This document shows, piece by piece, positions 1 through 37,756 of a stretch of 64,000 nt of DNA; within the stretch, counting starts at the first letter, position 1; every line of letters starts with the position of its first letter. A model generated the notes under the pieces. The model made no database searches, was not told where the DNA came from, and worked only from the letters and a program-made list of their open reading frames with translations. Origin of the DNA: Amphiscolops sp. MND2022. Lineage: Eukaryota. The stretch spans positions 5,768,001 to 5,832,000 of the forward strand of contig OZ076409.1 in NCBI GenBank assembly GCA_964187785.1, in the 5' to 3' direction. The position numbers were made by a program, and so were the translations under genes.

Positions 1-3000
1 TTGAGTTTAAATGTCTTGCATCTAAAACTACCTTTATTGAATCTCCTTTTGGGATAATTATTAGAGGATTTAAAAATGTTGTTCCAATTGTATGTTTTTC
101 ATCTGTCTTTGAACCAATTTGTTTGATTATATTGTATTTTTCGAGTTCTTGTAAAAGTTTATTTAGTCTATCTCTATAATGAATTGGTACTTTAGAAGGT
201 CTTTGTGTATGAAGTTTACAGTTGTCTTTTATTCTAATTCGAAAGGGAGTAGAAATTTTTCCTACATCGTTTTTATGTTTGGCGTAGCAATGTTGATTAT
301 TGATTAAAATATTACACAGGTTCACATATTCAGTGTCAGTTAAATCTGAGTATTCAAAGTTAAACTTTTTTATAAATTGTTGATTCTCTGTAGAATAGGG
401 TAAAGGAGGAAAATCTTTTCGAATTTTATCTGAGGGTTGAAGGTTTCCAATAACAGAAGGAATAGGAAGTTGAAGTGTTTTATCCTTTATTTCTATCTTG
501 TTTATTTCTAATAGAGACTGTGGTGTTACTCTAGTGCATAAGTTCATATCTGTATATGGATTTGGTTTAATCGGAGTTGTGATATCAGGATGATACGCAT
601 GTATTACAGAGTGAATGAGTGAGTTTACATCATGAACTCTATAGTGAGAAGGAGTTGTTTGAGTAATAGGTATTTCTATGTATCCAATGATTCCTCGTGG
701 TAATGTAGCTGGTTGAGATGTAAAGTTTTGAATTATTGTTGCACAAGAGTCTTTGCTTTTGTCATTGGTCATCATGTCTAGGAAATGAAAGATATTTTTG
801 AATTTTTGTAAAAAATATGTATATGGATTTGTTGGATAAAATTTTGTATTGTCTTCGAGTTCAAAGTGTAAGTGTGAGTAGTTTTTTATTGGGAAATAAA
901 TTGTTTTTCCTGACCTTGGTTTAAAGTGAATTGGTTCTTTGCATTTAATCGTGTAAATATAAGAAATATATGGGTAATCTTTTTCTGTAAATGTAGAGAA
1001 TGTAGTCTTTGTTGGAAGATTTGAGTGTTGTTCTTTGTAAGTCATAACGTTTTGTTGAAAATCTATATTTTGGATGTGGTTTTTGAAAAAAGGTGTTCCA
1101 AGGATATTGTATTTAATATTGGCTACGGCGAAATCAATATTGAAGGATCGCGTTTGATGATTTACTTCAGTGAAACAGGTTATTGAAATATAATGTATTA
1201 TTGGTACTTCAGTTTGATTTGCAACTGTAAGAGTTTTGGCTCTTTGGTTTTGAAGATTGGTTGGAACATTAATGTTTAATTGTTTGGAAATTACGTAGAA
1301 TGTTGGTAAATTTAATACGGATATAGATGCTCCATTATCTAAGAGGAATAAGATTTCTAATTTTGTGGGTAATATACTATCATTTGTTTCAGAAGCGTGA
1401 ACATATAGTGGATAAAACCAACTATAAGGAGTAATTGTATTTGCTATTTCAGATGTTTGACAGGTGTGGATTTCAAATTTTGTACTATCATTGTCTTTTG
1501 TGGTTTTAACATCTACTTGATTTATTCTGTTTTGTTGTCTGTTTCTTGAGGGTGTTCTAGATCGTGATCTAAAATCTCTAGGTCTTGATGGAGATCTATA
1601 TGGGTGATTATATCGTTTAAAGGAATTTTCTTGTGATTGAGAACGTGATCTATATCTTGAGCGAGAGTTATATCTGTAGTTTGAGTTATTTCTATATGGA
1701 GTTCTATATGGAGATCTAGATGGAGTTCTTCTTTGATAATAATTATCAAATCGAGATCTATATGGGCTTCGAGATCGATTGTAATATCGTTGTCGAGAAT
1801 TAGATCGATAGTTGTTTTGCAAAGTTTCTCTACTATTACTGCGGTATCTATCGTTATTTCTATATCTATCGTTAAAGTAATTTTGATTGTATTTGTTACG
1901 ATCATTGTCTGAGGAGTAAATATTTGTATTCTTGTTTTGATTTTCTTGTGGATTATTAGGTTTACTACGAAAATATTGTACAAAGGATTGTTGAGGAGTT
2001 CGTGATCTTTGGTTATTGTGTTTATGATATTCATCGTCACGTTGTTTTTGGTAACAATTTGAAATACTATGATTATTTTTGTGACAATAGGAACAATATT
2101 TTCTATAAGCTGGTTTGCTCTTGTTATTTGGATCTCCAGATTGAGTAACCATTATATGATCTTCATTTTCAAATTCCTTTTTACTGTTATCATCTTCAAG
2201 CGATACTTTGTTTATTTCTAGAGCTAAGTCATTAGTTCTTATTTTCTCATTGGCAATGTCTTCAGAATCAACATGTCTAACAAGTGTGTGAAATGGTATC
2301 GAAGGTTCAAGTAATGTTGATACATGTTTGACTTGTCTTTTATGGGCAAAATCTTTTAATTTTTTTGGTAATCCTTTTGTGAAGATTTCATTATTTTTAA
2401 GGTTTATTGTAGCTGCATTTTCATTACACCATCCTTTTTTAACTAATTGTTGTACTCTAAGAGCAAAATGGCGTACTGTCTCATTGTCCTTTTTCATGAG
2501 TGACATAGCTTCTACTTGGGCGTAGTAAGCTGTTTTTTGAGATGAAAATTGTTTTTTGAATAGTTGTACAAAGGAATTCCATTGTTGTTTATAAGATATA
2601 TGAAGGTTTGTATACCAATCGAGAGCTGTTCCAGTTAATGAACATTGGATGTAAGCCATGCGTCTATTGTGCCAATATTTGTATTTTATGGGATTGTTTT
2701 GAGGTTCTTCGCCTATGGCAAAGGTTAATCTAGCTTCGACTTGTTGTAAATATTCTTCTGGAGTATAAGAATGGTCTAAACCATCAAAAGGTTTTATAGG
2801 TTCTGGTATTGAAGCGGACATGTTAATAAAAGTATCTTGTGGCATTGGTAGATATTGAATAGGAGTAGCTAATTGCTGTGCGTGTTGAGGAGGTACATGT
2901 TGAATTGTATTTTGCGGTAATGGATTAGGATTAAGATTTGGATTAGAATGCATTTGATATAAAGGATCAGTTGGTATGCGTGTGAGTGGAGGGTTTTGAA

Positions 3001-17743: not shown

Positions 17744-17948
17744 TTCTTGTGGGCTCCTTCGGGCGTTCTTCTGGGCGTCCTTCTGGGCTCTTTCTGGCGT
17801 CCTTCTGGCTTTTTGGGCGTTCTTCTGAGCTCCTTCCTGGGCGTCCTTCTGGGCTCTTTTTGGGCGTTCTTCTGGGCTCCTTTTGGGGGTTCTTCTGGGC
17901 TCTTTTTGGCGTTCTTCTGGGCTCCTTTTGGGCGTTCTTCTGAGCGTC
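17560..17948. repeat. 12-bp GC-rich minisatellite (ctgggcgtcctt variants); truncated copies at 11160-11320 and 14348-14532
   Basis: Directly visible 12-nt periodicity; minus strand reads (AQKD/AQKN)n or (RRTP)n. Confidence 0.95.
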
Positions 17949-18131: not shown

Positions 18132-18512
18132 AGGTTTCTTTAAAAACTCCGGACAACAAGCGTACCACGTTTAAGCGCTTTGTGTATTCTGTTGGAGTCG
18201 TCCAGTCCCGTCCTGGCTTTTGCAGCTTCGTCCTGATCAGGTAAGTACCTAAGGTAAATCCAGTTCCGAATCGCCAACTAAGGTTCGGTTCGCCTAGCAG
18301 AAACCCAGTTAGTCCTCCTTGCGTGCCGCTCGGTTCGTCCATTCCGCATTCATTGCCGTCATCGTCTTGCTTGTCGATAGCTCGGATTAGGTAATCAATA
18401 CGCATCGTTTCCTTTTCATCTCATTGACCATTGTGTTTTTCGCCGCTTCTAGCGTGTTCGTTCAGTCTCTATAGGTTCCGTGGGTTGTTGCCCATCAACA
18501 GCTACAGCAACG

Positions 18513-20280
18513 ATGGTCAATCCGAAGATAGCAACCCTCACAAACCAGTTCAAACTACATGAATTGAAGTTCCGGAACGCATCCAATTACTTGGCATCTA
18601 GATTGGACTCCGACCAGAATCCTGCTCGTCTGCGTCAAAATTTTGCCCAGTTGCAAACTATTGCATGCAGACTTGAAGAACTGGCCGAACAAATGTCAGC
18701 ACACATGCCTCTTGAAGAATTGGAGCCGTTTCTCCAGATTTCAGCCGACACCTCGCTTCAAATTCTACAAATAGTCGACCAAATTGAAACCCTATCAACG
18801 ACAGAACTCACGCATGCCACTCACAGCCAATCTTCTCCAGGATTTACAGCAGTCCAACTCAGATGCGACGAATTCACAACAACACCAGCAGCCACAGCAC
18901 CCACAACTTCGACACAAAGGGACAGCAGCAGATCCGACAGTCAACAACCCGCTTCTACAGTCACCACGAATCGAGAAGCCACTCACATCTTAGACATGAC
19001 CGGAGACGAGCTCTCTCGTCATCTAGCCACTGCCGAAGACACAAAACTTCCAATGACACCCGACCGCCATCAACACAACAACAGAGGTACACAACCAACA
19101 GAAAACTCAACTACCGTCACCGAGCTAGACAACGTACTTCAGCAACAAGAACCCTCGAGCTTTGGAAACAGCCTTCAACCGCAACACTGCACCAGCACAA
19201 CTGGAAGTAGCTTAATAGCACCTCAACAGCAAGCGAATATGCAAACCATACGACTTCCGCCACCGTTACCACCTCTTCTAAATCAACAAACTTTCAACAA
19301 CCATTACGAACAGCATCATATCTCCAACAGCAACCAGCATTTTCAGCCCACAGTCGACAACATGCTTCCCCAATTGGTCTATACATCCAACTACCATCAA
19401 CCAACCTTTGACACCATTGTTACCCACAACCCTACATACCCGCCAACTGCATACGACATGAGGTCATACGAACCTCGCCACTTATCGCCTGCACAGCCAC
19501 CTCCCAGCCACCCACAAGAACAACTACCGTTCACCCAGTCCACTGGAAATTTATTTAACCCCATACACAACCACTACAGTTTTTCGCCGCCCTGTGAAGA
19601 TGTACTTCACCCACATCAATCACAGCCAACTTACTCTACTACGATCCCTACAGCTGTACCTCATCGTGTGATAGACCCGTCACATCAACTGATAGCAAAC
19701 AACGCTAACTATCCTATACCACCACTGATCCCACAACCTACTATGATTGGACCTCCGGTACCACCTCCTCCATCAACTCTATTCATGAACGATTTCCCAC
19801 GACAACAGATGACCCAAACCAACTTCCGACAGACCGCCAACACTGTGCAGCAGTACTTTGGCACACCAACCATGCCAATCAGTCAAACCGTCTTCACAAC
19901 TCAACCCCAGCACGTTATCAATATACCGACCGATAACAGCTCCGCAACACAGCTAGAACCAACCAATACAGCACTCACACACAACCGCCCATCGTTGCAA
20001 CCTCATCATACCTCAACTGCAGATGCCAACAATTCACCTGCTTGCATCAAATTACCACCCATTCAAATTCCCAAGTTCAACGGTGACCCATTAGCATATC
20101 ACGATTGGATGAATATCTTCAAAGCCACAGTTCACACTAATCACTCAATCACACAAACACATCGCATCACCTACCTCCAAAATTCAGTCACCGGCCAAGC
20201 CAAGGACCTAATTCGTGGATACTCCTGTATCCCTGCATTCTACGATGGAGCCCTGGCTGAGCTCCACTCTCACTTTGGAC
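18513..20280 (+). pseudogene. BEL/Pao Gag N-terminal part (DUF1759-like), truncated
   Basis: IKLPPIQIPKFNGDPLAYHDWMNIFKATVH..RITYLQNSVTGQAKDLI after a long P/Q/T-rich region. Confidence 0.85.
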
Positions 20281-20751
20281 TTCACGACTATTTTAGCAGA
20301 AACAGAGCTGATGCTCCTCAATTCCCGCCCACTCACTCATGTTGCCGATCAGCCGGAGAATGAAGAACCACTGACGCCCAACCACTTCCTACTGCATCGA
20401 CCCTATGCCAACTTACCTCCCGGAGTTTTTGACAGCTCTGAGCAGCCGCTTTCATTTAAATCATGGAAAGAAATTCAGAAAGTGACAAACCACATATGGA
20501 AGAGGTTGCTGAAAGAATACCTCCCTACTCTTCATCCTCGAGGGAAGTGGTCGACTGCCCAACCTCAGCTACGAGTAGGTGATCTTGTCTGGATTCTACG
20601 CGATTTTACGCCTCGTGGAATATGGCCTCTTGGACGAATCGCAGCTACCCACCCTGGGCGAGATGGAGTTGTCCGTGTCTGCACAGTCAAGACAGCCTAC
20701 GGAACCTTCGATCGGCCCGCCGTTTCGCTGTCTCGCGTTTTTGCCCCGTGA
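20281..20751 (+). pseudogene. BEL/Pao integrase C-terminal part (DUF5641-like)
   Basis: LNSRPLT..PLTPNHFLL..WKRLLKEYLPTL..VGDLVWI..WPLGRI..PGRDGVVR. Confidence 0.9.
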
Positions 20752-22645: not shown

Positions 22646-23084
22646 CTAAAAAGGTTGAAAACATATTTTAATTTTTTAATGGAGATATTAATGATTTAAA
22701 TATTTTAATCAGATTTTTGAAAATTTGCAAAAACGCCCAGATCAATTAGGGTTAACGATTTATCGACCGCGCAGAATTTTTTCAGCTATTCCAATCAGCG
22801 GCAACTTATAGATTGACCGAATTCAGTTCGGAAACTGAATTCGGTTGTAATTTTTATTGAAACATACTTGAAGTCAAACATTGAATAGTTTGAAGAGAAC
22901 GTTTTTCAGCGAAACCGCGAATTTGCAAGTCACTGTTTAGCGAAACAAGACGGGAACGTCTAAAGTTAGCGCTATATCTAAGGCTCAAAAAGCGCAAAGT
23001 TTTTAAAATTGTAAAAGGGGGGACCCTTTCGACTTTTTCAAAATCCAGTTTGTTGCAAAATATCAAAAATTGAAGGGGGGACCC

Positions 23085-24827
23085 TGTAAGAGCCACGTCC
23101 CGTGGTGTCTCTCAAATCACCAACGGACCGCGAGTCCTTTTTCAATAATTTTGTTTTCAAGCCGGATGAATTTTCCCTATTTTCCTGACTGCTAGGGGAC
23201 ATGCTAGCCTCAGTGTCCCTGTTCCCAGAGGAAGACATTGAACTCACAATATTTTGAATCTCTGGTAGCACCTTTTCTGATATGGCAATACTGATTGCCC
23301 TATTTATTTGGCTATGTACCATAGCCATCATGGAATCCATTTCTTGAGACAGTCTAAGATTAAATTCATTTGAGAAAGTTTCAAAAGACTGCCTAACATC
23401 GTTCTGCCTGTATTCACTATTCTCATGGGAGAAGTTTCTATATTCATCCCTTTGGTACAAATTAGCCTCACTATCACTACGAACTGAAGATTGTTCAATT
23501 ACTTCAGTTAACTCTCTCTCTATAGGATTTTCACTCCCGTTACCTAACATTACGTCCAAGTTGTCCATATCGGACATCATGTCCATTTCTCTAGACTTTC
23601 TAGTTTTCGCCTTTTGACGTCTCGTAGAAGGCATGAGAGATTGTTGCAAGAGGAAAGAATTTAAATTGAGATCTTTAAGCTTGCAAATAATATTGTATTC
23701 GGTATTATAACAGCGAACTTGACTGTGACTATTCGTGTGAAGATTATGTCCCCAGGACCACGGGTCCCAGTTATTTATAATCAACTAAACATGACATGCA
23801 TAAAAGTGGTAGTCATCAGTCTAATTTTAGCAACAGGTATTCTAAAAATAGACACAACATACAACGTGTCTTTACAAGTATTTTATCGTAATACTAAAAA
23901 TAGCAACAGGTATGACGTAATTGATTTACGTGCTTCTACATATATGAAGTAGTTACGTTTAAAGATGTACATGTGCCCCTTCAGGCCATCCAATTAAGTT
24001 TCAGTAGCAACATTTCATGTAAAACAATACATACTAAATTATATGAAATAAATACATGCAAAGATGGTGTGTGAACATTGAGCTGTCCTTTATGGCCTTT
24101 TAAGATACAAACAGCTCGTTTTGACTTTCTATCCAGAAAGTTCTGGAAAATAAGAGAACACAAAAGAGGGGGGGAAAGGACTAATGGTCCTTTTGTAGAC
24201 AAGGTGACAGATCTCCAATCAGAGTAAATATACCGCTTCTGAGATAGTACATTATCAATTTCAATATACGCACTTCTTTTATTCTACTTTGGACTCAGTG
24301 TCCACGCGTCCCTATTTAGTACAAGAGTAGCGTCGTTGTGGTGGCGAGTGGCCCTTGAGTCCTTTAATTTAGAATACAGCACAAGAGCGAGCAAATGAAC
24401 AATGCACTGTGATTGGTTGAGAAATTGGACGGACAGCGCGTCTAGCGAGACAGGAAAGGAAACATTTGAACTCGTTTCCTTTACCTGTACGCCTTGGTGT
24501 CCAATTTCTCAGCCGTGGTATATATCTATCACTGTTATACATGTATTAATACACTATATTCAATTTTCAACTACATACTTTACAAGGCTAATTCCGGATA
24601 ATTATTCCAAAGCGTTTCAAATTTCATTAATATAAAAGCCCCGAATAAAATGATATACTTACATAAACATATGCGAAATCAATTACAATAAGATAAGTTT
24701 ATAGTTTGTCTTCTTAGACTTTTGGACTAATAGTCCATTCCTCAGTTCATCGGGAGGGTACCAGGGAGAGTATTGTAGTTGTAGCCGACTGAGTACCAAT
24801 TGCCATCGCAGGCGGCAGCCCGCGACA
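23085..24827 (-). repeat. 3' LTR of element B (1743 bp)
   Basis: Direct repeat of 37207-38951. Confidence 0.97.
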
Positions 24828-25560
24828 CTCCCCCTGGCATAAGTAGAAAAGCGTTTGCGTTCATGCCATCTAGGAATGCTCTCCTCCTTGCCTGAGTCTC
24901 AGCTAGAGTCTCTCCTACAGTTACTGTCCTGTCCAGATATTCATTGACGGTCTCTTCTTGAATTTGTTTGACTGATTTCCCGCATACCACACAGTCTGAG
25001 TAGTTGACTAAGGAGGGGGGCTCGGCAAGGACCATCTCGTCGAAATGACTTGCCACCGCTTCCATTGACGTGTTCATGGATGATGGTGAATCGTCATGAG
25101 GTTCACATGGGTATTGTAGTCCTCTGTCCTGTTCAGGTGGAGATAGCGGGGTGTCCACTTGCGGTACTAAATTTCGGCATATATTTATGGGGTGATTAGA
25201 TTTGATCCTGTTGTCCCGACTTACAGGCCCATTTCCCCTTGCCAAGCTGAAGTACTTCTCCCCAAAGGTAGGAAATGGTGGCACATTTGGCCTGGGCGTC
25301 ACAGGTCTTTTCTGCTCCTGACCGGCTGAGGTTGAAGGAATTGATATGGGCTCCGCAAGTTGTCTTTCAATGCATTTGGCCATGAGTCTAATCTCGTCTG
25401 ATTCGTCTTCGGACGACAAGTTCAAGTCATCCACAGACCACCCACAATTCGAGTCCATCGCTTCCTCTTCGTCGCTAGAGATGTATATGATTGTCGGTTC
25501 CCCTTCTGATCTTGCTGCTCCGATGAAGTCCATCGGGAAGGTCTCGGAGATGTCTGACAT
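24742..25560 (-). CDS. Accessory ORF of element B (272 aa, unknown function), ends inside the 3' LTR
   Basis: ATG-to-stop ORF; acidic N-terminus with IIYISSDEEE; CVVCGK motif; no recognisable env signal peptide or TM segment. Confidence 0.75.
   Translation of the reverse strand: MSDISETFPMDFIGAARSEGEPTIIYISSDEEEAMDSNCGWSVDDLNLSSEDESDEIRLMAKCIERQLAEPISIPSTSAGQEQKRPVTPRPNVPPFPTFGEKYFSLARGNGPVSRDNRIKSNHPINICRNLVPQVDTPLSPPEQDRGLQYPCEPHDDSPSSMNTSMEAVASHFDEMVLAEPPSLVNYSDCVVCGKSVKQIQEETVNEYLDRTVTVGETLAETQARRRAFLDGMNANAFLLMPGGVSRAAACDGNWYSVGYNYNTLPGTLPMN
24828..24835 (-). promoter_or_regulatory. Polypurine tract of element B
   Basis: AGGGGGAG immediately before the TG of the 3' LTR. Confidence 0.75.
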
Positions 25561-26776
25561 AGCTCGGATTTTGAAGATTTTCTTTGCAATTTTGATTGTT
25601 TTCCTGTTGGAATTTAGGTGTTGTTGAAATCAACTGATTTTCAGCAGAGGAATTGAGATTATGGCGATCTCAGTTTCCTTCGACCGCGAGTCTCTTCGTC
25701 TCTCCTTTCCCGGGTTTTCACATTTCCCGGCAAGTAATTCTTCAATAACAGATTCCGCTTCTCTTGTTCTTTTATCATGCCGCCAAGACACTTTGTAATT
25801 GCCGACATCAGTTTTATTGACCATCATCAGCTAGGCTAATACTTCTAAGTTAGGAGAGTTACTTCAAGTGTTTATTAACACTCATCAGGTACTTGAGAGA
25901 CTCAAGGAGATAAAGTTATGGCAGTCAGCCACGCCGGCCTTCATCAATATGATCAACCAATAAGATTGCAGCAAAATTTCTCCCAAGTTAAAATGGCTTC
26001 TCAAGGTTGTAAATCCATATAAGGAATAATATAAAATGACCTTGAAAACGGAATAAAATGAAATAAAATAAAATAAAATAAAAACATGGAATAATTTTGC
26101 AAATAACAGTTTTCGAAATTAATGGAAAAGTAGATATCACTGGCAGCCTTTATCCACATATTTCCATAAATTGTAGATACTTGTAAATTTGACACCAAAT
26201 TGTATAGCCACGATCTCCAATCTTGACATCTTGTCACAACGCCAATTCATCTTTCAATTCTTTATCATTCAGTTGTACTATTCACTTCTTGTATTATCCA
26301 GTATTTAATCACCAACGTATTTACTCATCGTATATTTAACCAGTTATTTAGTCTTTGAGTCGTTTTTATTTATATTTTCCACTCGTCTTCAACACAGGAC
26401 TCAGTGTCCATTCGTCCTCATCCCCGTGGGTTTCCTCAACTTCTCCCGGAAAATCGACATCCAGTCCCAATTTTGGACGTCCCCATCTAGCTGTCAGCTC
26501 GGCTCGACTTATCTACACAAATATCACTTACCGACTCCCCCGCATTGGAATACTAACAGGTCAGTTGTTCTTCATACATCTTCATTAGCTAGGCTAGATT
26601 TTTGAACTAAATTGAGGCTTGATCAGGGCTCTCTTTTCGTTCAAGTACTTCCTGTCCACGTAACACGAGTGTTCACAAGTGTTCAATTTAATCTACTTCC
26701 GGAAGATTTTTTAACGCGGTTAATGGATTTTAACTCAGGAAGCTTGCCGCTTGAATTCAATTCTTTCTATTTAGAC

Positions 26777-29700
26777 ATGTCGTCTGAAGAACAAATCGCC
26801 GGCACAATTCTTCCAACATCAGAGAATCCCGAGGTTGCCGTAGAGACCAATACAGCACCAAAGGAGCCAGTAGTGATAACTCGTCCTGACTCCAACCAGT
26901 CATCTAGTAGTGGAAACACTGAAGAGAGCATAACCACATATGCGGAGAAAACTTTACGGACACTGGCTAGTGATAATCCTTCTCTGGATATTTCATTTCT
27001 CCCGGCACCGACACTACCTGAAGATGGAACAGCAGGGCCCATAAAGGTTTCCCAGTCGATAGGTTTTGAACGTCTAGGAAAGGAAGCCTTCTCACTCGAC
27101 GGCATGCAAGAAACTGGTAGCTACATTGAGCCACGGGACAAGAGCAAGGAGTACTTTGCCACTGATACTAGTGAGGCTGGCGAGCTGCTTGACGAGATGG
27201 GTACTGAAGGAACGCGTAAACGGCCTACCTCAAGCATTACCTGTTCTGAATTACCATCTGCAACCGAAGGTGCTGCCGGACAAGATACAGATGGTACTAC
27301 GTCTGGAGTCGCAAAGTCTGGGTTCCGAGAGGTGAAATTACCAGAACGATTTTCGGCTAATGGACAGGCTGTTTTAAGGAAACATTTCTCCTCATCTGCC
27401 CCAATTGAATTGCCTAAAGGTCACAGTACTGTTTCATTCAGTGAGCCGCAAATACATGCCGTCCTCAAAACCATATCAGATGAAACTGTGAAATCATCCA
27501 TCCATGCCATGCGTTCCCTTGTCTTACATGCTGTTTATGGGGCAGGAAAGCAGACTCCTGGACAGTTCCGGAAATCAATGGTTCGAGGCGTGGTCCCTAC
27601 ACGAGGCGATCCCAATAGCTCAGGTGCTGATACAGAAAGTGAGGGAGGAATGACAGACGATTATACGAGCGGAGCCCTCACCTCTGATGATGAGCTCGTT
27701 GTTGCAGCCAGGCCACGCTGTGGGACGCCACTACCAAGAGAACGTTCTGGCTACCCAAATACTTCCGATGGAGAGATGGATAGGACTCCTAGTACCAGCC
27801 ATACCACAGTCCCTAGTCCAGGCTACAGTGAGGGAGACTACCAACCTCTAAGTGCCATGCGGGTAGAAGACCAACCACGACGACCTGGAGGCAGTCCGCC
27901 GCGCAAGAAGCGGAGGTACGTGGGCAGACCTGGCAAAGTCATGAAGGCTGCCCATTTCAAAAGTATTCAGTGGACCAAGGTCTTCGTAACTGGACCACTA
28001 GATCCTGTGCATAACAAGCACAAATTCTACTGCCAAATTTGCAAGGCGAACGTGTCAATCTATTCCAAAGGGGCCAGAGAAATCGTGAGACACTACCAGA
28101 GTGAGACCCATCTGCGCAAAGACCAACGATGGCGCTACGAACACCTTAGTAGGGTGGACAAAATCAGTGGACAGATTGTCCATGCAGTTAGAGGGAGGGA
28201 CGGACATCTCCTTTCCGCTCTAGAATTAGAGAAGAAGCCACGTTTCGAATCGGCTCCATTAGTGGATATTGGCCCTAGATTTCCCTTTTACGACGACTAT
28301 ATGGCCAATGCTGGGGGAATTGCATGCCCCGAAGATTTGAGACTGGGTACTCAACTTTCTTTGATTGGACGAGCGGTCCCACATTTCGGCAATCTGACTG
28401 TACTGGAGAGACTGTGGGCCGAGGTTGGGAATTTCACCAATCATCAAGACACTTTCCGACAGCTTGATTGGAGTTCGCTCACGCTCACTGTAAGTCTTTC
28501 CATTCTTTCTAGAAGTTAGGACCACTAAGCGTATGAATTTTGAAAGTGTACCTTAATCCACTAAGTCTGTTGAGCCATAGTTTGCCCTTTCCAATTTTTG
28601 GTGATTTCGTTTTGTTCTAGGCCATGTTTCACCACATCTTTTTGCGCGGAATGGAGGATATAGCCCAGTCCGTGAATTCCTGCGGCGCATACTCTCTGGA
28701 GTTTGAACCACACGGAAATCAGTGCATCCTTTCAATCAGATACTGGAAGGCGAGTACCCTGGCCAAAGTTCAATTGTGCAAGTACCCACTGCCTTCGGAC
28801 CCGGGCCCCAGTCAGTTACTGATGATTTCACGCCTACTGTCCTCTCTTTCCACGCTGCCACAAATTGCCTGTGTATCAGGTTGTACTTCCGAGGTGTTGC
28901 GATCAGTTGAGCGTTCCGGGCTGTTCAAGAAGGGCATCGAGTACCCATTCCGCTTCAATGCCTTTTCTCTTCCCAAGCTAATGCATCAGCTTGAAGGGAG
29001 TGTGTTCGGACGAATTGACTTCTTCACACAGCTGAAGTACCTTCTGGCCTTCCTCAACAACAGTCTAGATGAGCCTTGGATGTCTTCTTGCCCAGAACTG
29101 ACCAAGGTTTGAATTAATATTGCTGGACTCGTATGTTTGCACATTGTTTGTGCGTCTCACAGCACAGAGTGTTCCTTTTAGGCTATAATCAATTTCGACT
29201 TGAAGATACGGTGCGTTCCGACTATTTGTACTGACTTGATCAGCAACTGGCAGCCTCTTCTTGACCACCTGACCAGACTTGCCCCTGGCTACGAAATGCG
29301 AGGAGTTAAAAATAAGGTTTCGATTTTTCCTTGTACCTGTTTCGGTTTTCTTCTCATGACGTACGACCCCAGGATCACTATCCATTAATTGCTTGAGTTC
29401 CCTTTTAGCCGCAGAGTCTTGAGTGGACTATCATCACCGATGACTTCTTCTTAGTCAAGTTGGAATTCTTTGGAAAGATCATCTATGATTGTGAGTATTG
29501 CTTTTGTTTCAGAGGGAATTTACTCGTGATCGTTCACGTAGTTTCTTTGCAGGGACTCACTAGGTAAGGCTTTGTACTCAAAGGTCTATTTCCCTGTTTA
29601 GATACTCGTTGCTTTGAGAGAAGTCTAGTTGGACACAGGGACGCTGGTTTCTTCACCTTTGGGCAGTTGAATAATTTTGCCCGTAAGCTATGCTATCGCT

Positions 29701-30761
29701 CTTTGCTCCCCAAGCACCATCCTAGCGAAACCGATTGGACTCAACTTCCCATTCTGCGAACTGCTGAATTGCGACAACTCTCCACCAGGGACTTTCTTCA
29801 CCGCTTGAAATTGAAAGAAGATCTAGACGGAGCTGCTAATTCTAAGGTCAAGCGGGACTACAGTGACAAGGAAGGGCCAATACCTAATTTCCCCAAACTC
29901 GTTGAGGAATGCAAGGAGAAGTTCGCTGGAAAAGCAAGGGGTTATGTGGTCTACCTTCTTGAGAAGCTGCTAGCGCATCACAGCATCAATGCTGAGATTG
30001 TGAAGGGAATGGCCAGTTTTGACCCACACATCCTCTTGAGTCTGCCTCGAGACCAGGCGACCTATTGTTACCGGGCACTGTATAACAGCTTCAATCTCCG
30101 TGGATGGTTGGAAGGATCCTCTGAAGACGACTGTCGGGACGAGTACCTCGAATTTATCGACTTATTTCGCGAAAAGTATGCTACTCTGGAAGATTCGCCT
30201 GATGGTTTTACTGATATGGTGGAATTGTTGTCTAATATGACTGAGCTCCGAAGTCGACCTCATTTGTATCGTTTATTTCGATTGTGTTGCTTGTGCTTGA
30301 CAGAGGACACCCCTTTGCTTCCGACTATCCGTTTCCAGGATGTTGACGCACAGAGTCCTCGGTGTAGATTGGGTGACGTGTTGCTTCCTGCTCAGTCTTT
30401 CCTAGCACGAGCCCCTGACGCCATCTCGGTTTGCACTAACGATGTCTCTTTGTGTAAATATCGTGAGGTTGAGCAGCAATTCAATTCTGGCAATGTGGCT
30501 GGTGACCCTTGGGTCCACGTCGACACTTTTGGGCGAGCTGATTTTTATAAGACTCTCCAAGCCGCTTACGAATCTGTGGTCCGAGTGCCGAGGTCAGCTT
30601 CCTCGAGTAAGACTGGTTCGCGTTCTAATTCTCCTGCTGCAGTTGGTCGGCGTAAATCTTCTCCTGGGAAAGCAAAAAAGAAAGTTTCTTTTGATGGCTC
30701 CAATGCTGTGAAGGGTACCACAGACGGCCAAGAAGCTGGACAGAAGGCCACTAAATCTTAA
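26777..30761 (+). CDS. Spliced antisense gene of element B: BED-type zinc finger + degenerate hAT-transposase-like protein (~1191 aa); exons 26777-28489, 28621-29106, 29182-29316, 29409-29490, 29602-30761
   Basis: GT-AG introns with compatible phases 0,0,0,1 give one open frame; NLS SPPRKKRR; FYCQICKANVSI..IVRHYQSETH; YSLEFE..ILSIRYW; DDFFLVKLEFF; RPHLYRLFRLCCLCL. Confidence 0.8.
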
Positions 30762-30983
30762 ATGTACATATGTACATTTGTTCTTTAGTCTGTTATTTTG
30801 TATTTAACATGAACTAACTGATCTTCCTTTTTTTGTTGAAGCTTTTGTGGATTGCTTGTTGACCCTTGGGTCTCTTTTATTGTTTTTTATTGTATTTATT
30901 TGAAAAGTTCAGAGTCAGAGTAGTCCCAGTAAAAATATTAATTTAGTCCAAGAGACTTATGGGACTTTAATTTACATGTCTGA

Positions 30984-33900
30984 CTAGTATCTGTATTCAT
31001 CAGTGAAGTTGGGGGTGGGGTTAGGTCGAAGATTATATTTCCCTCCTCTAGGGCTAGAATTTTCTTCATTTTTTCCTTTTTCCGATATTCCGGGCACGGT
31101 AATATCTACGCCCCTTTCTGAAGCAATTTCCTCATTTGTGACGTCATTTTGATTTTCCGTCCCACGTGGCGTTTCGTCTAGCGGGGACGACGCGTTACGG
31201 TTGCTGGCCGATCTCGGCCGTACTTCATTCTCGTTGACGTCATTGTCATTCATTCTCTCGCTGCTGCGCTCACTTTCGTTTACGCTGCTGCTTTCATTTT
31301 CGGTGACGTAATAGTCGACTTCTCCGTTCGCGGCGTCCTGTGGCAGACGCGTGGCCGTATGTGGCCAATCATTTATCTTCGGCTCGAATAGCTCGTACTC
31401 AAAGTCCGCTTCCCATGAAATGGTATACAGATCATCTTGCGGTATTACGATTTCTTCATCGGGCTGTAATTTCTCTTCTTCGTATTTGTCCTCTAGTGGA
31501 GCATTTGGGACAAATTTTTTGAGCCTTATCCGGTGCAAGATTTGCGTTTTATTCGTATTTAAACGACGCACTATATAATTGTTATTTGGTAAAGTTTTTT
31601 GAACAACAAAAGGACCAATCCATCGGAAGTCCCTAAATGGTATCTTAGAGCCTTGACTATCCGCTTTCGGTTGAAGAACAAAACAGTAGTCTTTCTCTTG
31701 TAGCGGAGCTGCTTTGGCCTTGCGGTCGTAGTACTCCTTGTACTTTAAATACGACTGCATAATATTCCTTTTGGTTTGATCAATGAGGATTTGTGTCCTC
31801 TGCTGCAATTCTTCCGCGAGTTCAGTCGTCGGTAGGAAATTTTTGTTAGGATTATTCCCTAATTTGTGATCCAGGACGTTATAGGGAATTCGGCCATGAA
31901 AGACTTTGCTAGGCTCACAACCAATACTAGCGTGATAAGTAGTGTTATAGTTAAGTACAGCTAATGGTAAATATTTGTGCCATTGACGACGGTATTCCCC
32001 TGAGGCCATCTTTAGGTTGGTTTTTAAAGAGGCGTGTGTCCTTTCAAGTTTACCAATAGTTTGCGGATGTTTAGTAGTGGCACACTTCAATGTGATCCCC
32101 AGTATTGCAGTAATTTCTTCTAAAATTTTTGATGTAAATGCGGATCCCTTGTCCGTGATGAGTGTTGTTGGCAAATACGAATGTTTCGTCATGATGTCAA
32201 TTATCACCTTGGCTACGTTTGCGGCTGTTGCCTCAGTTAGCGGGTAGGCGAATAAATATCTTGAAAATACGTCTATTGCCGTCATCACCGTTTGGTATCC
32301 GCCGCTGGTTGGTAAATTTGGCAGTATATCGATTTGCATGGCATCTTCTGGGCCTAGGTCCCATTCAGGTAAATTCAGTAATTCTGGGGTGATTACCGTG
32401 TTGGGGACCCTTTTGTCCTTGGCACATATTTCGCAGCCTTCTACCCATTTTTTGACGTGTTGAGCAATTCCGGGGTAGTAATATTTTTGGCGAATTTCCT
32501 GTAACATTTTAGAGATGCCCGGGTGTCGATGTGCCGTGCCATGTATTGCCTGTAATAATTCTTGGACTAAGTGTTTCGGTAACAGAATTTGATGGTATTT
32601 GATCTGGCCGGTTTCATCATAATACAGTCTGGTCACGATTTCGTCCTTAAGGACTATTCGGTCTATGTTGTTCAAATAGTATTTGTACCGAATATCCTGT
32701 TGCAAGATTTCTTCAGAGTATTCTTCCTTCTGAATTTTTGCTTTCAATTGGAGCAAAATCGGATCTTTAGACTGTTCAAGTAGTATCTGGTTAGTCCGTC
32801 GTAATTTTTGAGAGAAATTGGTAATTTCTTCTATTGTATTTTCGGATATGGCGTCAATGTGAATGACTGTCTCAGGGACCATGAGTCCCTTTTTGGATTG
32901 TTTTTTCCGTTCCCAAATCTGTTCTTCTGTTTCGTTATCTTCCTCAGTGAAGAAAATTTGCTCCTCCTCTGACACGCCGGCTGATTGGACGTTGACCTCA
33001 ATCGGTCTAGTTTCTACGTCCTCTCGTATTTTCAGGACCAACTTTTCAGTAGGATCCAATTCCATACGGGACAAGAAGTCTGCCGCTGTGTTGTTTTTGC
33101 CTGGAATGTGAGCTATAATGAAGTTGAACTGAATGACAAAATCACAAGCATTCCAGAGAGGCGGTGGAATTATCTTTGTCTGGAAGAACCTCGTGACCGA
33201 TTTGTTATCTGTGAGGATAATCACGGGTTGAGGTGTTCCCCAGAAGATATGTCCAAACTCCTTAAATGCGTAATATATAGCTAGGAATTCCTTTGCATAT
33301 ATCGACATTTTCAGTTGAGAAGGCGTGAAAGTTTTGGATCCATATGCAATCGGCGCATAGGACTTTTTAACAGAAGTGTATTTTTGATTTGGGTCGTCTT
33401 CGGTCAATATGGCGTAACCGGCTGCTGTAAAACTTGCGTCAGTCATGAGGACCAGTTGTTTGTTCGGCAGAGGTTGTTTCAACGCCAATTGACTACATCG
33501 GTCTAAATCACGGTTGATCGCATTAAATTGTTCAACCAGCTCTTGCGTGACTAGTACCTTTTCATCCTTTTTGAGCAATTGGAAGAAGGGAACTAGTTTT
33601 TCGGATAGCCTTGGAATATAATTCCTGTAGTAATTGAGGAAACCAATATAGCGTTGTAAGGCCTTCTTGGACTTTGGGAATTTCGTCTTTTCCAAGAAGT
33701 TAGCGATTCTTTCTTTTTGGGGCTTTACGCCTTCAGGTGTAATGGTTCTCCCAAGAAAGTCAATTTCAGTAGCGCCGAAATGGCACTTGTGCATGGACAA
33801 TTTCAATCCTGCTTCTCTGATACATTGGAACGTTGCTCTTAAGTTGACGATAAGCTGGTTAGCGTCTGTCGCCGCGACACCGATATCGTCCACATATTGA

Positions 33901-36077
33901 GCACATTGGTCTGCTTTTATAACACGGTCCAGGTATTCCCTCATGAAACTGGAGAAGGCCGACAGGGCTCTACTGAGTCCTTGGGCCAATCTTCTATATG
34001 CAAATGTCCTGCTGGCGAAGTTGAAAGCTAGCATTTCAATCGATTTCTGGTCTGCCATAGGAAGGCAATGATAGGCTTGGGAACAGTCGAGTTTGCAAAC
34101 GAGCTTTTTGCCTGCCATATGTTGCGCCGCATCCGTCAAGGTGCTGACTGGGTGGTTGTTATTGACGTAGTCATCTGAAATCAGATTATTGATCTTCCGC
34201 AAATCCACCAACAGTCTCAGTTTTCCATTGGGTTTTTTCTGCGCAAATATTGGACTGGCATACTTCGAGAATGGTAATGTTGTTATAATCCCATATTTAT
34301 GGAGTAATGCCAGTTCGACCAATATGTCCTCTTTGAGGTTGACCGGAGTAGGTAGGCTCTGACTGTAAGCAGGCGACTCGTCCTTTGGGGTCAGTTTGAC
34401 CGTAAATTCCTCATTGACTCCAATGTCAAATCTATGGCGTGCAAAGATGTCATGGAATTCCACTAATAGAGTTTCTATTTGTCTGATTTCATGTTGTAAC
34501 ATTGAGTCCTTCCAATCAAAATTGCTGAGGAATTTTCGACGAGATTCCGCATCGTCGTGCGGGTTGAGTTGTTCTAAACTTTGCAGGTTTCGTAATTCTT
34601 TGAGAATTCTTTGTTGTATTGGGGTATGGGTCGTTTCGTCCCCTGGGTTTTCAGGCGTCGGGAACCAATATTGTTCGTATTGGTCATTATTTCTGTTAGC
34701 TTTAAGAAGGCTACTAATATAATAAATGGCGTCGTCTTCATTTTCATTCAGTAAGTGCCAGGTGGACACTGGGTCTATTGGCCTGACGTGTTTCATCTGT
34801 TCAGGGGTCATCACTGAAAAGTTTGCAACGTGCATCCCTTTCTTTATTTTATAGGGTTGATCAGTGAAATTGTTGACGTGTATTCTCATAGCCCCTTCAT
34901 GTAGTGTGACTATGGCGGCACAGATGGTTATGTCACCTTCCTCATGCAGAAGATCGCTGGGTTGCAATATGCCCGTAACTGCATTTTCTGCGTAAATTTG
35001 CGATTGAATGGGTATGACCACATGGTCATTGGGCGAAATTGTGACATCCTCAGGATTGAGGATGGGTTCCAAAACATTTGAGTATTTATGGTCAGCCGTC
35101 TTAAGTTGCATCGAGAAGTAGGGAAAGTTGAGTATACCTTGGCGCATGTCCAGGACAGTGTGGTTCCTTTGAAGGAACATTAGTCCAATTATGGGGCTTG
35201 ACAGTTTTTCCATTACAATGAAAATTTCGTGAAATTCTATGTCGCCCACTTCGAATTTTAGTTCGACTGTGCTCTTTGGGGTTTCTAAGTCTCCATTTGC
35301 GACCATTATTTGGAAGGATGGGGCAGGACCTTCTTTTACAATGGATTGAGGGGCCAACAGGCGTATTTTCCTGAGGTCTGCCTCCGGGATTGCACTGGAG
35401 TGAGCTCCAGTGTCTATCAGGCCATCTAGAGTTAATTCCCCAAAGTCCATTGGGAAATAGAGCATTCGTCGTTTGAATTTAAGTCCAAGGTTTGTTGAAA
35501 GGGGAACGTATGGTAATTCTCCTTCTTTGGTCACTAGGAGGTGTAAGAAGGCTGTCTCGTCTAAAAGACTATTAGGAGCCTTGTGGTCCTCCTGTGTGTG
35601 TATAGCGTCTACTTCTTGTATAGTTGCTTCAAAGTTCGGCTGCCAAAGATCAATGAGGGCCCGAGACAGTGTGTTGTGTTCGATGTCTGGGTCGTCCTCG
35701 TCGTCAGTTGGAGGGTAATCTTCGTTTCGAAATTGTAAATTTGTTTTGTCATATAGTTCGTCGTCCCAGTACGGGTCTTTGCCATACTCGGGGTCATAGT
35801 ATTGAGGGTTATAATCTTCGACAGTTTGTAAGGGTCTAAATTGAGTTTCGGAGTCGTTGTAATTGCTATTCCGTCGATATAGGTATGGGTGATCACTGTG
35901 AATGATATATTGAGTTTCTTTGCGGGCGTCGGCCATCTGCTGCTGCCAGACAGTCGATGGCATCCCTGTGGTGTCGTTTTGAGTTTGTTTATATGTAATG
36001 TTTGCAGGGTCAGATATGACGTACTGTCGTACTGACATCTTGTTACATATTTGGAGTCGTGGCGAAACTAGTTTTTT
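30984..36077 (-). CDS. pol: Pol of element B (protease, dUTPase-like insert, RT, RNase H, integrase), probably reached by -1 frameshift
   Basis: LIDTGA; YVDD; TDAS/EFLA/TDNK; H-H-C-C finger, TDKGSAF..ERTHASLK; WIGPF; 1684 uninterrupted codons from the first ATG. Confidence 0.97.
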   Translation of the reverse strand, partial: KKLVSPRLQICNKMSVRQYVISDPANITYKQTQNDTTGMPSTVWQQQMADARKETQYIIHSDHPYLYRRNSNYNDSETQFRPLQTVEDYNPQYYDPEYGKDPYWDDELYDKTNLQFRNEDYPPTDDEDDPDIEHNTLSRALIDLWQPNFEATIQEVDAIHTQEDHKAPNSLLDETAFLHLLVTKEGELPYVPLSTNLGLKFKRRMLYFPMDFGELTLDGLIDTGAHSSAIPEADLRKIRLLAPQSIVKEGPAPSFQIMVANGDLETPKSTVELKFEVGDIEFHEIFIVMEKLSSPIIGLMFLQRNHTVLDMRQGILNFPYFSMQLKTADHKYSNVLEPILNPEDVTISPNDHVVIPIQSQIYAENAVTGILQPSDLLHEEGDITICAAIVTLHEGAMRIHVNNFTDQPYKIKKGMHVANFSVMTPEQMKHVRPIDPVSTWHLLNENEDDAIYYISSLLKANRNNDQYEQYWFPTPENPGDETTHTPIQQRILKELRNLQSLEQLNPHDDAESRRKFLSNFDWKDSMLQHEIRQIETLLVEFHDIFARHRFDIGVNEEFTVKLTPKDESPAYSQSLPTPVNLKEDILVELALLHKYGIITTLPFSKYASPIFAQKKPNGKLRLLVDLRKINNLISDDYVNNNHPVSTLTDAAQHMAGKKLVCKLDCSQAYHCLPMADQKSIEMLAFNFASRTFAYRRLAQGLSRALSAFSSFMREYLDRVIKADQCAQYVDDIGVAATDANQLIVNLRATFQCIREAGLKLSMHKCHFGATEIDFLGRTITPEGVKPQKERIANFLEKTKFPKSKKALQRYIGFLNYYRNYIPRLSEKLVPFFQLLKKDEKVLVTQELVEQFNAINRDLDRCSQLALKQPLPNKQLVLMTDASFTAAGYAILTEDDPNQKYTSVKKSYAPIAYGSKTFTPSQLKMSIYAKEFLAIYYAFKEFGHIFWGTPQPVIILTDNKSVTRFFQTKIIPPPLWNACDFVIQFNFIIAHIPGKNNTAADFLSRMELDPTEKLVLKIREDVETRPIEVNVQSAGVSEEEQIFFTEEDNETEEQIWERKKQSKKGLMVPETVIHIDAISENTIEEITNFSQKLRRTNQILLEQSKDPILLQLKAKIQKEEYSEEILQQDIRYKYYLNNIDRIVLKDEIVTRLYYDETGQIKYHQILLPKHLVQELLQAIHGTAHRHPGISKMLQEIRQKYYYPGIAQHVKKWVEGCEICAKDKRVPNTVITPELLNLPEWDLGPEDAMQIDILPNLPTSGGYQTVMTAIDVFSRYLFAYPLTEATAANVAKVIIDIMTKHSYLPTTLITDKGSAFTSKILEEITAILGITLKCATTKHPQTIGKLERTHASLKTNLKMASGEYRRQWHKYLPLAVLNYNTTYHASIGCEPSKVFHGRIPYNVLDHKLGNNPNKNFLPTTELAEELQQRTQILIDQTKRNIMQSYLKYKEYYDRKAKAAPLQEKDYCFVLQPKADSQGSKIPFRDFRWIGPFVVQKTLPNNNYIVRRLNTNKTQILHRIRLKKFVPNAPLEDKYEEEKLQPDEEIVIPQDDLYTISWEADFEYELFEPKINDWPHTATRLPQDAANGEVDYYVTENESSSVNESERSSERMNDNDVNENEVRPRSASNRNASSPLDETPRGTENQNDVTNEEIASERGVDITVPGISEKGKNEENSSPRGGKYNLRPNPTPNFTDEYRY
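36068..36077 (-). promoter_or_regulatory. -1 ribosomal frameshift site A AAA AAC followed by TAG
   Basis: gag frame TCA AAA AAC TAG; -1 frame AAA AAA CTA GTT is open into pol. Confidence 0.75.
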
Positions 36078-36172
36078 GAGTCCGTTTTACGTGAGTTTGA
36101 TTGGCTTGAAGATGCAGTTTCAGGGTTAGTTGACTTTTTGGACGATTTTTCATCGCCAGAGGTGTCATCAGC

Positions 36173-37756
36173 CTAATCCTCAGGACGTGTCCTTTTGGGT
36201 CGTAAATGTGCTCCAGCCCCTTTCCAGCATCTTTCAACAGGGTGATTTTTCTTTCCGCAAGTAGGGCATTCTGGGTATGTAGGACGTTGGGGCTTTTTGC
36301 CATTTTTGTCCTCCAGTTCTTTCTTCTTCTTCAATTTAGAGCAGCTCTTATAGAAGTGGCCTGTGGCTTTACAATAAGAGCATTGTGCGTCCTTTTTAGT
36401 ATTTATGCCATTAGAGAGCAAATTGTTGTTACTGGTGGACGCAGAGGCCATTGTAGCGATTGGTAAATCGTCTGACTCTTCTAATGCGTTGAGTTCAAGC
36501 TCTCTTTCAAGATGAGCGACGATTTCTTCATATGTCCCGTTCTCCAGGCGGGCCATATTGACAGATCGTTTCAATTTTGGAGGCAGTTTTGCGTATAATA
36601 AGCTGTCAATCATGCTTTTTGCATTTTCGCCGAAAGCTTTTTCTGCCCCCTGGTTCAGTTCTTCCAAGAAATCCGGCAATTTCATGGTATTCGGATCGAA
36701 AGTCAGCCGATGCCATTTGTGTTTTGCCGTTGCTTGGGATTCCGGTTTGACGTATTTCCTCCGGAATATGATTAGCACATCCTCGAGTGTTTGGCGGTTA
36801 ATTGAGTTTATGTTCCTGAAGGTCTGCAGGGCCCCTTTTCTGAGCAATGAGTGAAAATGGTTTATTTTCATTTGCTCTGTCATGGCCGGTTGCATTTTGA
36901 TCATTGTGTGGAACAAATCTTCAAAGAGTTCGAATTTCTCACTCTTTCCGTCAAACGTCATAGGTGTCGTTTGGACAGGTCGGATAGTCATCGTTTGGGG
37001 TTTATTTTGCAAATTGACTAGTACATCAGCCAATCTATTGAGCGGGTCCTGAGGCTGCTCTGTGACCTCTGGTTCTGGCGCTGGCAGAGTGGTGTCCAAA
37101 GAGACATTGTGGTTAGACTGCTGTCTCTCTAGGTTCGGGATTGAGTGGATTCGTCCAGTGAGAAATTCAGGTATAGGCTGTTGGGCTTCGTTAGCTCCTG
37201 TCACCATGTAAGAGCCACGTCCCGTGGTGTCTCTCAAATCACCAACGGACCGCGAGTCCTTTTTCAATAATTTTGTTTTCAAGCCGGATGAATTTTCCCT
37301 ATTTTCCTGACTGCTAGGGGACATGCTAGCCTCAGTGTCCCTGTTCCCAGAGGAAGACATTGAACTCACAATATTTTGAATCTCTGGTAGCACCTTTTCT
37401 GATATGGCAATACTGATTGCCCTATTTATTTGGCTATGTACCATAGCCATCATGGAATCCATTTCTTGAGACAGTCTAAGATTAAATTCATTTGAGAAAG
37501 TTTCAAAAGACTGCCTAACATCGTTCTGCCTGTATTCACTATTCTCATGGGAGAAGTTTCTATATTCATCCCTTTGGTACAGATTAGCCTCACTGTCACT
37601 ACGAACTGAAGATTGTTCAATTACTTCAGTTAACTCTCTCTCTATAGGATTTTCACTCCCGTTACCTAACATTACGTCCAAGTTGTCCATATCGGACATC
37701 ATGTCCATTTCTCTAGACTTTCTAGTTTTCGCCTTTTGACGTCTCGTAGAAGGCAT
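36173..37756 (-). CDS. gag: Gag of element B (likely start MPSTRRQK inside the 5' LTR)
   Basis: MTFDGKSEKFELFEDLF capsid-like region; two CCHC knuckles CSYCKATGHFYKSC and CPTCGKKNHPVERC. Confidence 0.9.
   Translation of the reverse strand: MPSTRRQKAKTRKSREMDMMSDMDNLDVMLGNGSENPIERELTEVIEQSSVRSDSEANLYQRDEYRNFSHENSEYRQNDVRQSFETFSNEFNLRLSQEMDSMMAMVHSQINRAISIAISEKVLPEIQNIVSSMSSSGNRDTEASMSPSSQENRENSSGLKTKLLKKDSRSVGDLRDTTGRGSYMVTGANEAQQPIPEFLTGRIHSIPNLERQQSNHNVSLDTTLPAPEPEVTEQPQDPLNRLADVLVNLQNKPQTMTIRPVQTTPMTFDGKSEKFELFEDLFHTMIKMQPAMTEQMKINHFHSLLRKGALQTFRNINSINRQTLEDVLIIFRRKYVKPESQATAKHKWHRLTFDPNTMKLPDFLEELNQGAEKAFGENAKSMIDSLLYAKLPPKLKRSVNMARLENGTYEEIVAHLERELELNALEESDDLPIATMASASTSNNNLLSNGINTKKDAQCSYCKATGHFYKSCSKLKKKKELEDKNGKKPQRPTYPECPTCGKKNHPVERCWKGAGAHLRPKRTRPED
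37189..37206 (-). promoter_or_regulatory. Primer-binding site of element B (inside gag coding sequence)
   Basis: TGGTGACAGGAGC directly after the LTR-terminal CA. Confidence 0.75.

Follow-up and report, generated by a model that had tools for sequence, protein, structure and literature searches.

An antisense gene with four conserved introns in a Ty3/Gypsy-type retrotransposon of Amphiscolops sp.

How can a gene interrupted by four introns belong to an element that multiplies through RNA, and what would such a gene do there? The question is raised by a locus in a 64,000-nt stretch of the genome of Amphiscolops sp. MND2022 (assembly GCA_964187785.1, contig OZ076409.1, forward-strand positions 5,768,001 to 5,832,000), which is referred to as the window and to which the coordinates below belong unless another locus is named. 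Within a long terminal repeat (LTR) retrotransposon lying on the minus strand, the plus strand carries a five-exon gene for a large protein. An initial annotation of the locus, made from the letters alone, took this antisense gene for a catalytically dead hAT transposase which the retroelement had domesticated as a DNA-binding accessory factor. Comparison of copies, relatives and predicted structures leads us to think it likely that a Ty3/Gypsy-type clade has here a genuine third (or fourth) gene, encoding a possibly nuclear factor which promotes propagation of the element and is kept by purifying selection. A descent from hAT transposases in particular appears doubtful.

Gene model, copies and selection

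The gene model consists of five coding exons and four introns, all on the plus strand. Coding exon 1 (26723-28489, 589 amino acids) contains an N-terminal motif, a low-complexity region, a basic motif, a zinc finger and a helical linker. After intron 1 (28490-28620) comes exon 2 (28621-29106, 162 amino acids), with a predicted RNase H-like domain at residues ~22-110 (28684-28950), then intron 2 (29107-29181), exon 3 (29182-29316, 45 amino acids), intron 3 (29317-29408), exon 4 (29409-29490, 27 amino acids and 1 nt) and intron 4 (29491-29601). Exon 5 (29602-30761, 386 amino acids) encodes an all-helical domain and then a disordered basic tail. The introns all begin with GT and end with AG and are in phases 0, 0, 0 and 1, as initially annotated; the junctions 28489/28621, 29106/29182, 29316/29409 and 29490/29602 yield one frame which runs to the stop codon at 30759-30761. 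That stop codon lies 222 nt from the stop codon of pol, the two genes being arranged tail-to-tail.

Counted from 26777, the frame comprises 1191 codons, the approximate length originally given for the protein, and its only stop is at the end. It remains open upstream of 26777, and an ATG at 26723 adds 18 residues (MDFNSGSLPLEF...). These residues constitute the motif MDx[FY]xG[SR]xPxx[FL], which was present in 58 of the 120 exon 1 relatives listed, 55 of them beginning with it; it was carried by 58 of the 80 relatives with 540 or more residues. The same protein start was found in all the genomic copies described below. The comparison places the start codon at 26723, not at 26777, and gives a predicted protein of 1209 residues.

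Copies of the gene were collected by a DNA search of the 1.07-Gb genome, in which 35 full-length matches were scored among 2077 first-look candidates. Identity to the window copy was 87-100%, with 21 sequences in a 95-100% group, the window copy included, and 14 in a second subfamily at about 88%. Every one of the 35 was colinear with the element on both flanks of the gene, beginning on the side of the 3' LTR and reaching into pol, which shows the gene to be a component of the element and not a nested insertion. Had it been a nested DNA transposon, or a host gene transduced once, it would be confined to this copy, and nothing was found in favour of that reading; all 35 copies, from two subfamilies, have it in colinear position, and a lineage whose protein is only 31% identical has the gene in the same position (see below). 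As the initial annotation had observed, no terminal inverted repeats (TIRs) or target-site duplication could be found at its ends: around the gene there was no exact 10-nt inverted pair, inverted repeats with a length of at least 40 nt were absent, the nine 12-nt inverted pairs with one mismatch were mostly A/T-rich and none had matching flanks, and no 8-bp target duplication flanked the gene. The copy comparison rules out a nested transposon or single-copy transduction, to which we assign a negligible probability.

The GT and AG dinucleotides were kept at every intron in 35 of 35 copies. The complete spliced frame was intact in 23 of them, ie in all 14 of the ~88% group and in 9 of the 21 in the 95-100% group, and the 12 broken copies contained frameshifts or stop codons. 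Between the subfamilies the exons differ by indels of 15, 3 and -3 nt (one copy has an extra -3), and the sole intron indel is of 1 nt. Divergence per site was 0.113-0.120 in exons and 0.169-0.191 in introns. The frame was kept across this 11-12% nucleotide divergence in 14 of 14 copies, with 1195-1196 codons counted from 26777 or 1213-1214 from 26723. A chance open frame is excluded by the splice sites in all 35 copies together with the in-frame exon indels.

The dN/dS ratio (Nei-Gojobori), determined against five copies of the other subfamily, was 0.128-0.134 (dN 0.053-0.057, dS 0.41-0.44). It was lowest in the finger (0.05-0.06), rising through exons 2-4 (0.07-0.08) and the helical domain (0.09-0.10) to 0.20-0.21 in the N-terminal 400 residues and 0.26-0.32 in the tail. 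In the same comparisons the last 847 codons of pol gave 0.084-0.095. These ratios indicate that, in the lineages which went on multiplying, purifying selection has acted on the antisense gene with nearly the strength seen for pol. The nearest copy gave a dN/dS of 1.2 at a dS of 0.006, as would be expected from neutral decay after insertion. Other copies, intron conservation and dN/dS had been put forward in the initial annotation as a check on its proposal, and the outcome, a gene with its splice sites in every copy at a dN/dS of 0.13, is in favour of that part of it which makes the gene a component of the element. It also bears on the idea that the antisense transcript acts as RNA only and that the long frame is incidental. 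Non-coding antisense retrotransposon RNAs are known (micropia, cited in PMC7264820). With a dN/dS of 0.13, exon indels that are all in frame, a frame kept in 14 of 14 copies at 11-12% divergence and protein relatives down to 24-30% identity standing against it, an RNA-only role is very improbable.

The region before the start codon was conserved to a higher degree than the gene itself. The initial annotation had placed a likely intron of the 5' untranslated region (UTR) at 26560-26774. That intron is untenable because its last 52 nt are coding. The stretch is also the best-conserved part of the locus between subfamilies, at 96.3% identity compared to 85-93% for the exons and 79-86% for the four introns, which it does not resemble in this respect; windows within 26600-26799 were 93-97% identical, exceeding every exon. 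The conserved block at 26600-26722 (plus strand), which includes the palindrome TTCCGGAA at 26697-26704, is a likely antisense promoter and 5' UTR. The palindrome lies within the motif CTACTTCCGGAAGATTTT at 26693-26710, 13-30 nt 5' of the start codon, which may resemble ETS/STAT-type sites. Upstream frames of three distant relatives (P0173, P0183 and P0241) read '..LPEDF..' in the same place, so that the DNA motif seems to have been kept across lineages.

Relatives, protein architecture and origin

Among 1.84 billion representative proteins, exon 5 had 470 relatives at E <= 1e-3 (72 of them at E <= 1e-30). Searches with the last 177 residues of exon 1 and with exon 2 gave 154 and 20 relatives, and at the protein level identities reach down to 24-30%. 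They are short ORF-type (open reading frame) calls from ENA assemblies, either single-exon or read-through. None of the 361 related proteins returned had a name or a Pfam domain, neither name nor accession was attached to any member of the 10 clusters looked up, none of the 120 exon 1 relatives listed had a precomputed Pfam domain, and no longer homologue of exon 5 was found among 5634 word-sharing candidates.

One relative, P0023, is 31% identical to exon 5 and was matched at 100% identity in the same genome, where at least 107 matches to it were counted, the majority with open frames. The architecture of this distant lineage was taken from one locus, read over one 2.5-kb stretch, and from the ORF patterns of database relatives. 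At that locus a minus-strand integrase frame ends 237 nt downstream; it is 70% identical to the pol of the window element and has the same C-terminal motif. A convergent pol beside a P0023-type gene implies that the tail-to-tail layout predates the split of these lineages. The two identities, 31% vs 70%, indicate that the accessory protein diverges much faster than pol. The end of pol at this locus (L036) is split over two overlapping minus-strand frames, 426-710 and 616-2499 of that locus, which could mean that this copy carries a frameshift or that the C-terminus is read in another way. Two further relatives, P0070 and P0010, come from other genomes, since their best identity in this one is only 31% and 45%. 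The genome searches with them gave about 7,000-7,700 first-look candidates, and most of the scored matches were open frames of 380-430 codons.

The same relatives bear on the intron positions. At the position of intron 1, five distant read-through ORFs carry an insert of 24-38 residues whose first residue is V (GTN) and whose last is Q (CAG). Exons 3 and 4 are contiguous in P0022, whose lineage is without intron 3, and this confirms the junction; P0025 and P0070 cross the exon 4-5 junction with no insert. The relatives in this way confirm introns at the modelled places.

The features which the initial annotation had read in the protein were recovered to different extents. The basic motif SPPRKKRR was found at 27893-27916, N-terminal of the finger, and recurs in relatives. 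The finger described as BED-like is present as CQIC...H...H, with the spacing CxxC-x16-H-x5-H, at 28031-28111. It is nearly invariant, its four ligands being kept in 118 of 119, 118 of 122, 119 of 121 and 119 of 121 aligned sequences, and conserved aromatic residues precede it. Its spacing is presumably compatible with BED fingers; in Pfam, zf-BED was unmatched and the finger gave only sub-threshold C2H2 matches, mainly ZN292-like (best E 2.4e-4). No Pfam family was matched by any exon, or found in 40 exon 5 relatives (E <= 0.1) or 20 exon 1/2 sequences (E <= 10), and profile searches of the PDB with both alignments were empty or gave irrelevant matches.

Structures were predicted on two separate natural pieces of the protein. 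Beginning about 130 residues after the finger, the domain in exon 2 was modelled with an RNase H-like topology, and its best structural matches, which are weak, were retroviral integrase cores. The scores stay under the level regarded as safe, and for that reason the RNase H-like fold is given as probable only. Where strand 4 ends there is a conserved Ser-Gly-Cys, the Gly being present in 26 of 40 aligned residues and Asp in only 4 of 40. A DDE-type active site is unlikely because this Ser-Gly-Cys, which has no acidic residue, follows strand 4. In our own reading of the structural alignment (ranges 244..332 vs 59..139), a conserved Glu would occupy the place of the first catalytic Asp; a third catalytic residue was not located in the domain. 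The helical domain of exon 5 comprises roughly 330 residues with the conserved motifs ..LSCLCLTE.. and ..PVQSYL... Its AlphaFold2 (AF2) model had a pLDDT of 77.6, and neither a fold match in PDB or BFVD nor a usable match in the ESM Atlas was obtained for it. Residues 1-384 of the relative P0163 scored only 0.75-0.77 in the ESM Atlas, with weak pointers to Transposase_21 and Plavaka (0.76-0.77).

These results do little for the initial proposal that the retroelement captured a hAT transposase. In its favour is the architecture only: as in hAT transposases and their ZBED derivatives, a finger is followed by a linker, here of ~130 residues, an RNase H-like domain and a large all-helical region. 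The stretch 'YSLEFE...SIRYW' may in addition resemble the motif on the first strand in Charlie-type hAT and DUF4371 proteins. The hAT-like core blocks reported initially were recovered by no search, and the fold and profile comparison which had been suggested, run piecewise, returned the weak RNase H-like model and no hAT match. There was no hAT-related Pfam family in any exon or in the 60 relatives scanned, and the C-terminal dimerisation domain was undetected, Dimer_Tnp_hAT matching 0 of 40 exon 5 relatives (E <= 0.1). The PDB profile searches contributed nothing of use, no hAT transposase was among the matches listed from the six fold searches, and the ESM Atlas pointers lead to other transposase families. 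The D, D, E triad is not matched, Gly replacing the second catalytic Asp within the Ser-Gly-Cys, and, unlike a hAT element, the gene has no TIRs or 8-bp duplication. A captured, catalytically dead hAT transposase is therefore an unlikely ancestor.

Somewhat less doubtful, and still only tentative, is an origin from another RNase H-fold DNA-processing enzyme. It could be a transposase from a different DDE superfamily (CACTA/Transposase_21, or Plavaka/KDZ-like), or else the integrase core of a retroelement which was duplicated and then degenerated. Retroviral and retrotransposon integrase cores are the best structural match of the exon 2 domain, and the Glu at the position of the first catalytic Asp is a further likeness to them. 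Taking all kinds together, we lean towards descent from some DDE transposase or integrase. Of the initial idea of a domesticated, dead transposase serving as an accessory factor, what stands is a selected gene of the element from which the second Asp is absent, and what found support in no search is the hAT origin.

The host element and its surroundings

The host element is a young, minus-strand LTR retrotransposon of the Ty3/Gypsy type, 15.9 kb in length and occupying 23085-38951 between the outer ends of its LTRs. The 3' LTR (23085-24827, minus strand, 1743 nt) and the 5' LTR (37207-38951, minus strand, 1745 nt) were identified by self-alignment and their TG..CA ends were read; comparison of the window with itself gave 99.37% identity between 23081-24827 and 37203-38951, the 1749 aligned nt containing 9 mismatches and 1 gap. 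The element is flanked by a target-site duplication of 5 nt, GACCC on the plus strand, whose left copy is at 23080-23084 and whose right copy is at 38952-38956. To judge from their positions, the polypurine tract is AGGGGGAG in element orientation (24828-24835, minus strand), which abuts the 3' LTR, and the primer-binding site is TGGTGACAGGAGCTAACG, also in element orientation (37189-37206, minus strand), which begins with TGG right after the 5' LTR.

The pol ORF (30984-36086, minus strand, convergent with the antisense gene) has 1700 codons. Pfam placed the protease at residues 214-307, RVT_1 (reverse transcriptase) at 617-782 (E 4e-23), RT_RNaseH at 848-972 (1e-16), Integrase_H2C2 at 1170-1225 (1e-15) and rve at 1246-1341 (7e-14), and it is because of this domain order that the element is assigned to the Ty3/Gypsy type. 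The initial description of a young Gypsy element is borne out by the pol order, the similarity and ends of the LTRs, the 5-bp duplication, the primer-binding site and the polypurine tract. A gag-like frame runs from stop to stop at 36173-37906 (minus strand), the part beyond 37206 being within the LTR; it matched DUF1759 weakly (E 2.6e-5, slightly below the Pfam cut-off).

Between protease and reverse transcriptase, pol gave a weak dUTPase-like match at 34806-35054 (minus strand; residues 345-427, E 2.3e-4, 21.4 bits against a cut-off of 22). According to a review (PMC6431247), a dUTPase occurs at the same position of pol in LTR retrotransposons of fungi, rotifers and planarians.

The antisense gene had been described as lying between pol and the 3' LTR. 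It does so, and yet the 3' LTR is not adjacent to it, for a second accessory ORF of 272 amino acids, ORF3, intervenes. ORF3 (24742-25560, minus strand) is on the sense strand of the element, starts with the ATG at 25560 and ends inside the 3' LTR. It is full length in the ~88% subfamily at 55-56% amino acid identity, with a dN/dS of about 0.16 at which dS is saturated, and a Pfam scan of it gave no match. ORF3 and the antisense gene are arranged head-to-head with their start codons 1.16 kb apart, a layout which would allow a shared bidirectional control region between them.

Divergence between the subfamilies is uneven along the element. When 24343-33581 was compared with copy L021, pol was 92.5% identical, the antisense gene 85-93%, and ORF3 with the inner LTR 62-67%; the outer LTR of the window element failed to align with that of this copy. 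The pattern suggests either that recombination has exchanged modules or that the 3' end evolves very fast.

The surrounding window is a nest of retroelements. A tandem array with a unit of about 3.2 kb occupies 8001-17887, with three copies 99-100% identical and a fourth that has diverged, and terminates in CT-rich repeats of 11-12 nt (17556-17940). A 1518-codon open frame with Retrotrans_gag (2-4555, minus strand) extends past the window edge, and a 636-codon retroelement frame (18453-20363, plus strand) has a weak match to DUF1759.

Possible function and known counterparts

Introns that lie antisense to the genomic RNA are not recognised in it, and hence are inherited through reverse transcription. 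The four coding introns of the antisense gene would accordingly be copied in every round of retrotransposition, and integrated DNA would be the only source of the protein, through antisense transcription which most likely starts in the conserved block before the ATG at 26723. Splicing would give the predicted protein of 1209 amino acids, with its N-terminal motif, low-complexity region, motif resembling a nuclear localisation signal, BED-like CCHH finger, RNase H-like domain and helical domain of ~330 residues. The basic motif would direct nuclear import, the finger and the dead RNase H-like domain would bind nucleic acid, and the protein may then influence, in trans, how the element itself is transcribed, silenced or integrated.

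Purifying selection near to that on pol, and only in the lineages which multiply, implies that the protein must raise the propagation of its own element. How it might do so is a matter for more cautious wording. A possible role, which we offer tentatively, is that of a nuclear, non-catalytic factor binding nucleic acid on the DNA, complementary DNA or chromatin of the element, and controlling transcription or countering silencing; an alternative is that it targets or tethers integration.

The opposite effect has also to be considered. The protein could be a self-limiting or latency factor comparable to HBZ of HTLV-1, which damps sense transcription or transposition and so holds the copy number at a tolerable level. 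The stops of the antisense gene and pol are close enough, at 222 nt, for the convergent transcripts to overlap, and the protein diverges quickly between lineages. In a review of antisense ORFs, regulation through double-stranded RNA is raised and the antisense promoter of HTLV is cited (PMC7264820). Selection on a repressor acting in trans would, on the other side, be hard to maintain across thousands of copies, and the purifying selection is as strong as on pol. A latency factor is, in our estimate, improbable, and a factor promoting propagation is the reading retained here.

The HBZ gene itself likewise lies antisense, in the 3' part of its retroelement, and encodes a nuclear regulatory protein, as the present gene may also do, and it has a spliced form. 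It differs in that it begins in the 3' LTR and encodes a small bZIP protein, whereas the present gene would start ~1.9 kb inside the element and encodes a large protein with no bZIP.

Closer in position are the extra ORFs that lie antisense between pol and the 3' LTR in plant and fungal elements, among them maize Grande gene23, rice RIRE2, Silene Retand, Phaseolus PvRetro13 and Botrytis Boty. The review describing them reports that they are found in most copies and have no assigned function, that some products are nuclear and that Grande has its own internal promoter (PMC7264820); the word 'intron' does not occur in it. Compared by description, the present gene resembles this type (aORF-3R) in place and orientation, between pol and the 3' LTR on the opposite strand, in its presence in all or most copies (here 35 of 35), in a conservation comparable to that of other genes of the element (dN/dS 0.13 vs 0.09 for pol) and in having no clear similarity in databases. 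It is unlike them in its animal host, its four coding introns, its 1209 amino acids and its combination of a zinc finger with an RNase H-like domain. The genome gave at least 75 matches to rhodopsin-type GPCRs above the Pfam cut-off, which we take as the mark of an animal. In plant elements of the Tat lineage of Ty3/Gypsy, antisense extra ORFs (eORFs) are described which encode either a plant mobile domain or a 'transposase 28' domain (PMC4408406). They share with the present gene the antisense position at the 3' end of a Ty3/Gypsy element and a domain linked to mobile elements; the present gene differs in having no Pfam match, in belonging to another kingdom and in being multi-exon.

The initial annotation knew of no equivalent in animal Ty3/Gypsy elements. 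No example of an intron-bearing antisense gene in an animal LTR retrotransposon was found in open-access papers and preprints, which agrees with it, although the kind as such is known from plants, fungi and HTLV-1. The available parts of studies on annelids (PMC8220671) and rotifers (PMC5408684) describe no such antisense gene, and that of PMC6431247 uses neither 'antisense' nor 'opposite'. The best reading of the locus is that the retroelement has a conserved accessory gene, to which the plant and fungal antisense ORFs and HBZ are analogous. New features are the occurrence in an animal, four coding introns that have been conserved, a protein of this size and composition, and the scale of the family.

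Plant antisense extra ORFs have been known for decades with no function assigned (PMC7264820), and a gene of the same kind has now been found in an animal. Its clear selection, many introns, thousands of candidate copies and several deeply diverged lineages open its function to comparative and biochemical work. In a retroelement, a multi-intron structure is one which only an antisense gene can retain. The locus is also a warning for annotation, as gene finders would call the five exons a host gene and repeat maskers would hide them. If the RNase H-like domain descends from a transposase or integrase, then it was a retroelement, and not a host, which recruited a dead DNA-processing enzyme. It is conceivable, if rather less than an even chance, that a large and hitherto undescribed clade of animal Ty3/Gypsy elements depends on a foreign third gene of this sort, ie a non-catalytic, transposase- or integrase-like nuclear protein, encoded antisense with its introns kept. 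Expression of the protein would in that case be limited to integrated copies and independent of the genomic RNA. In such an element, a retroelement would be stably combined with a protein of the DNA transposon type. It would be an animal counterpart of the unexplained plant antisense ORFs, with intact copies and relatives in sufficient number for their function to be tested.

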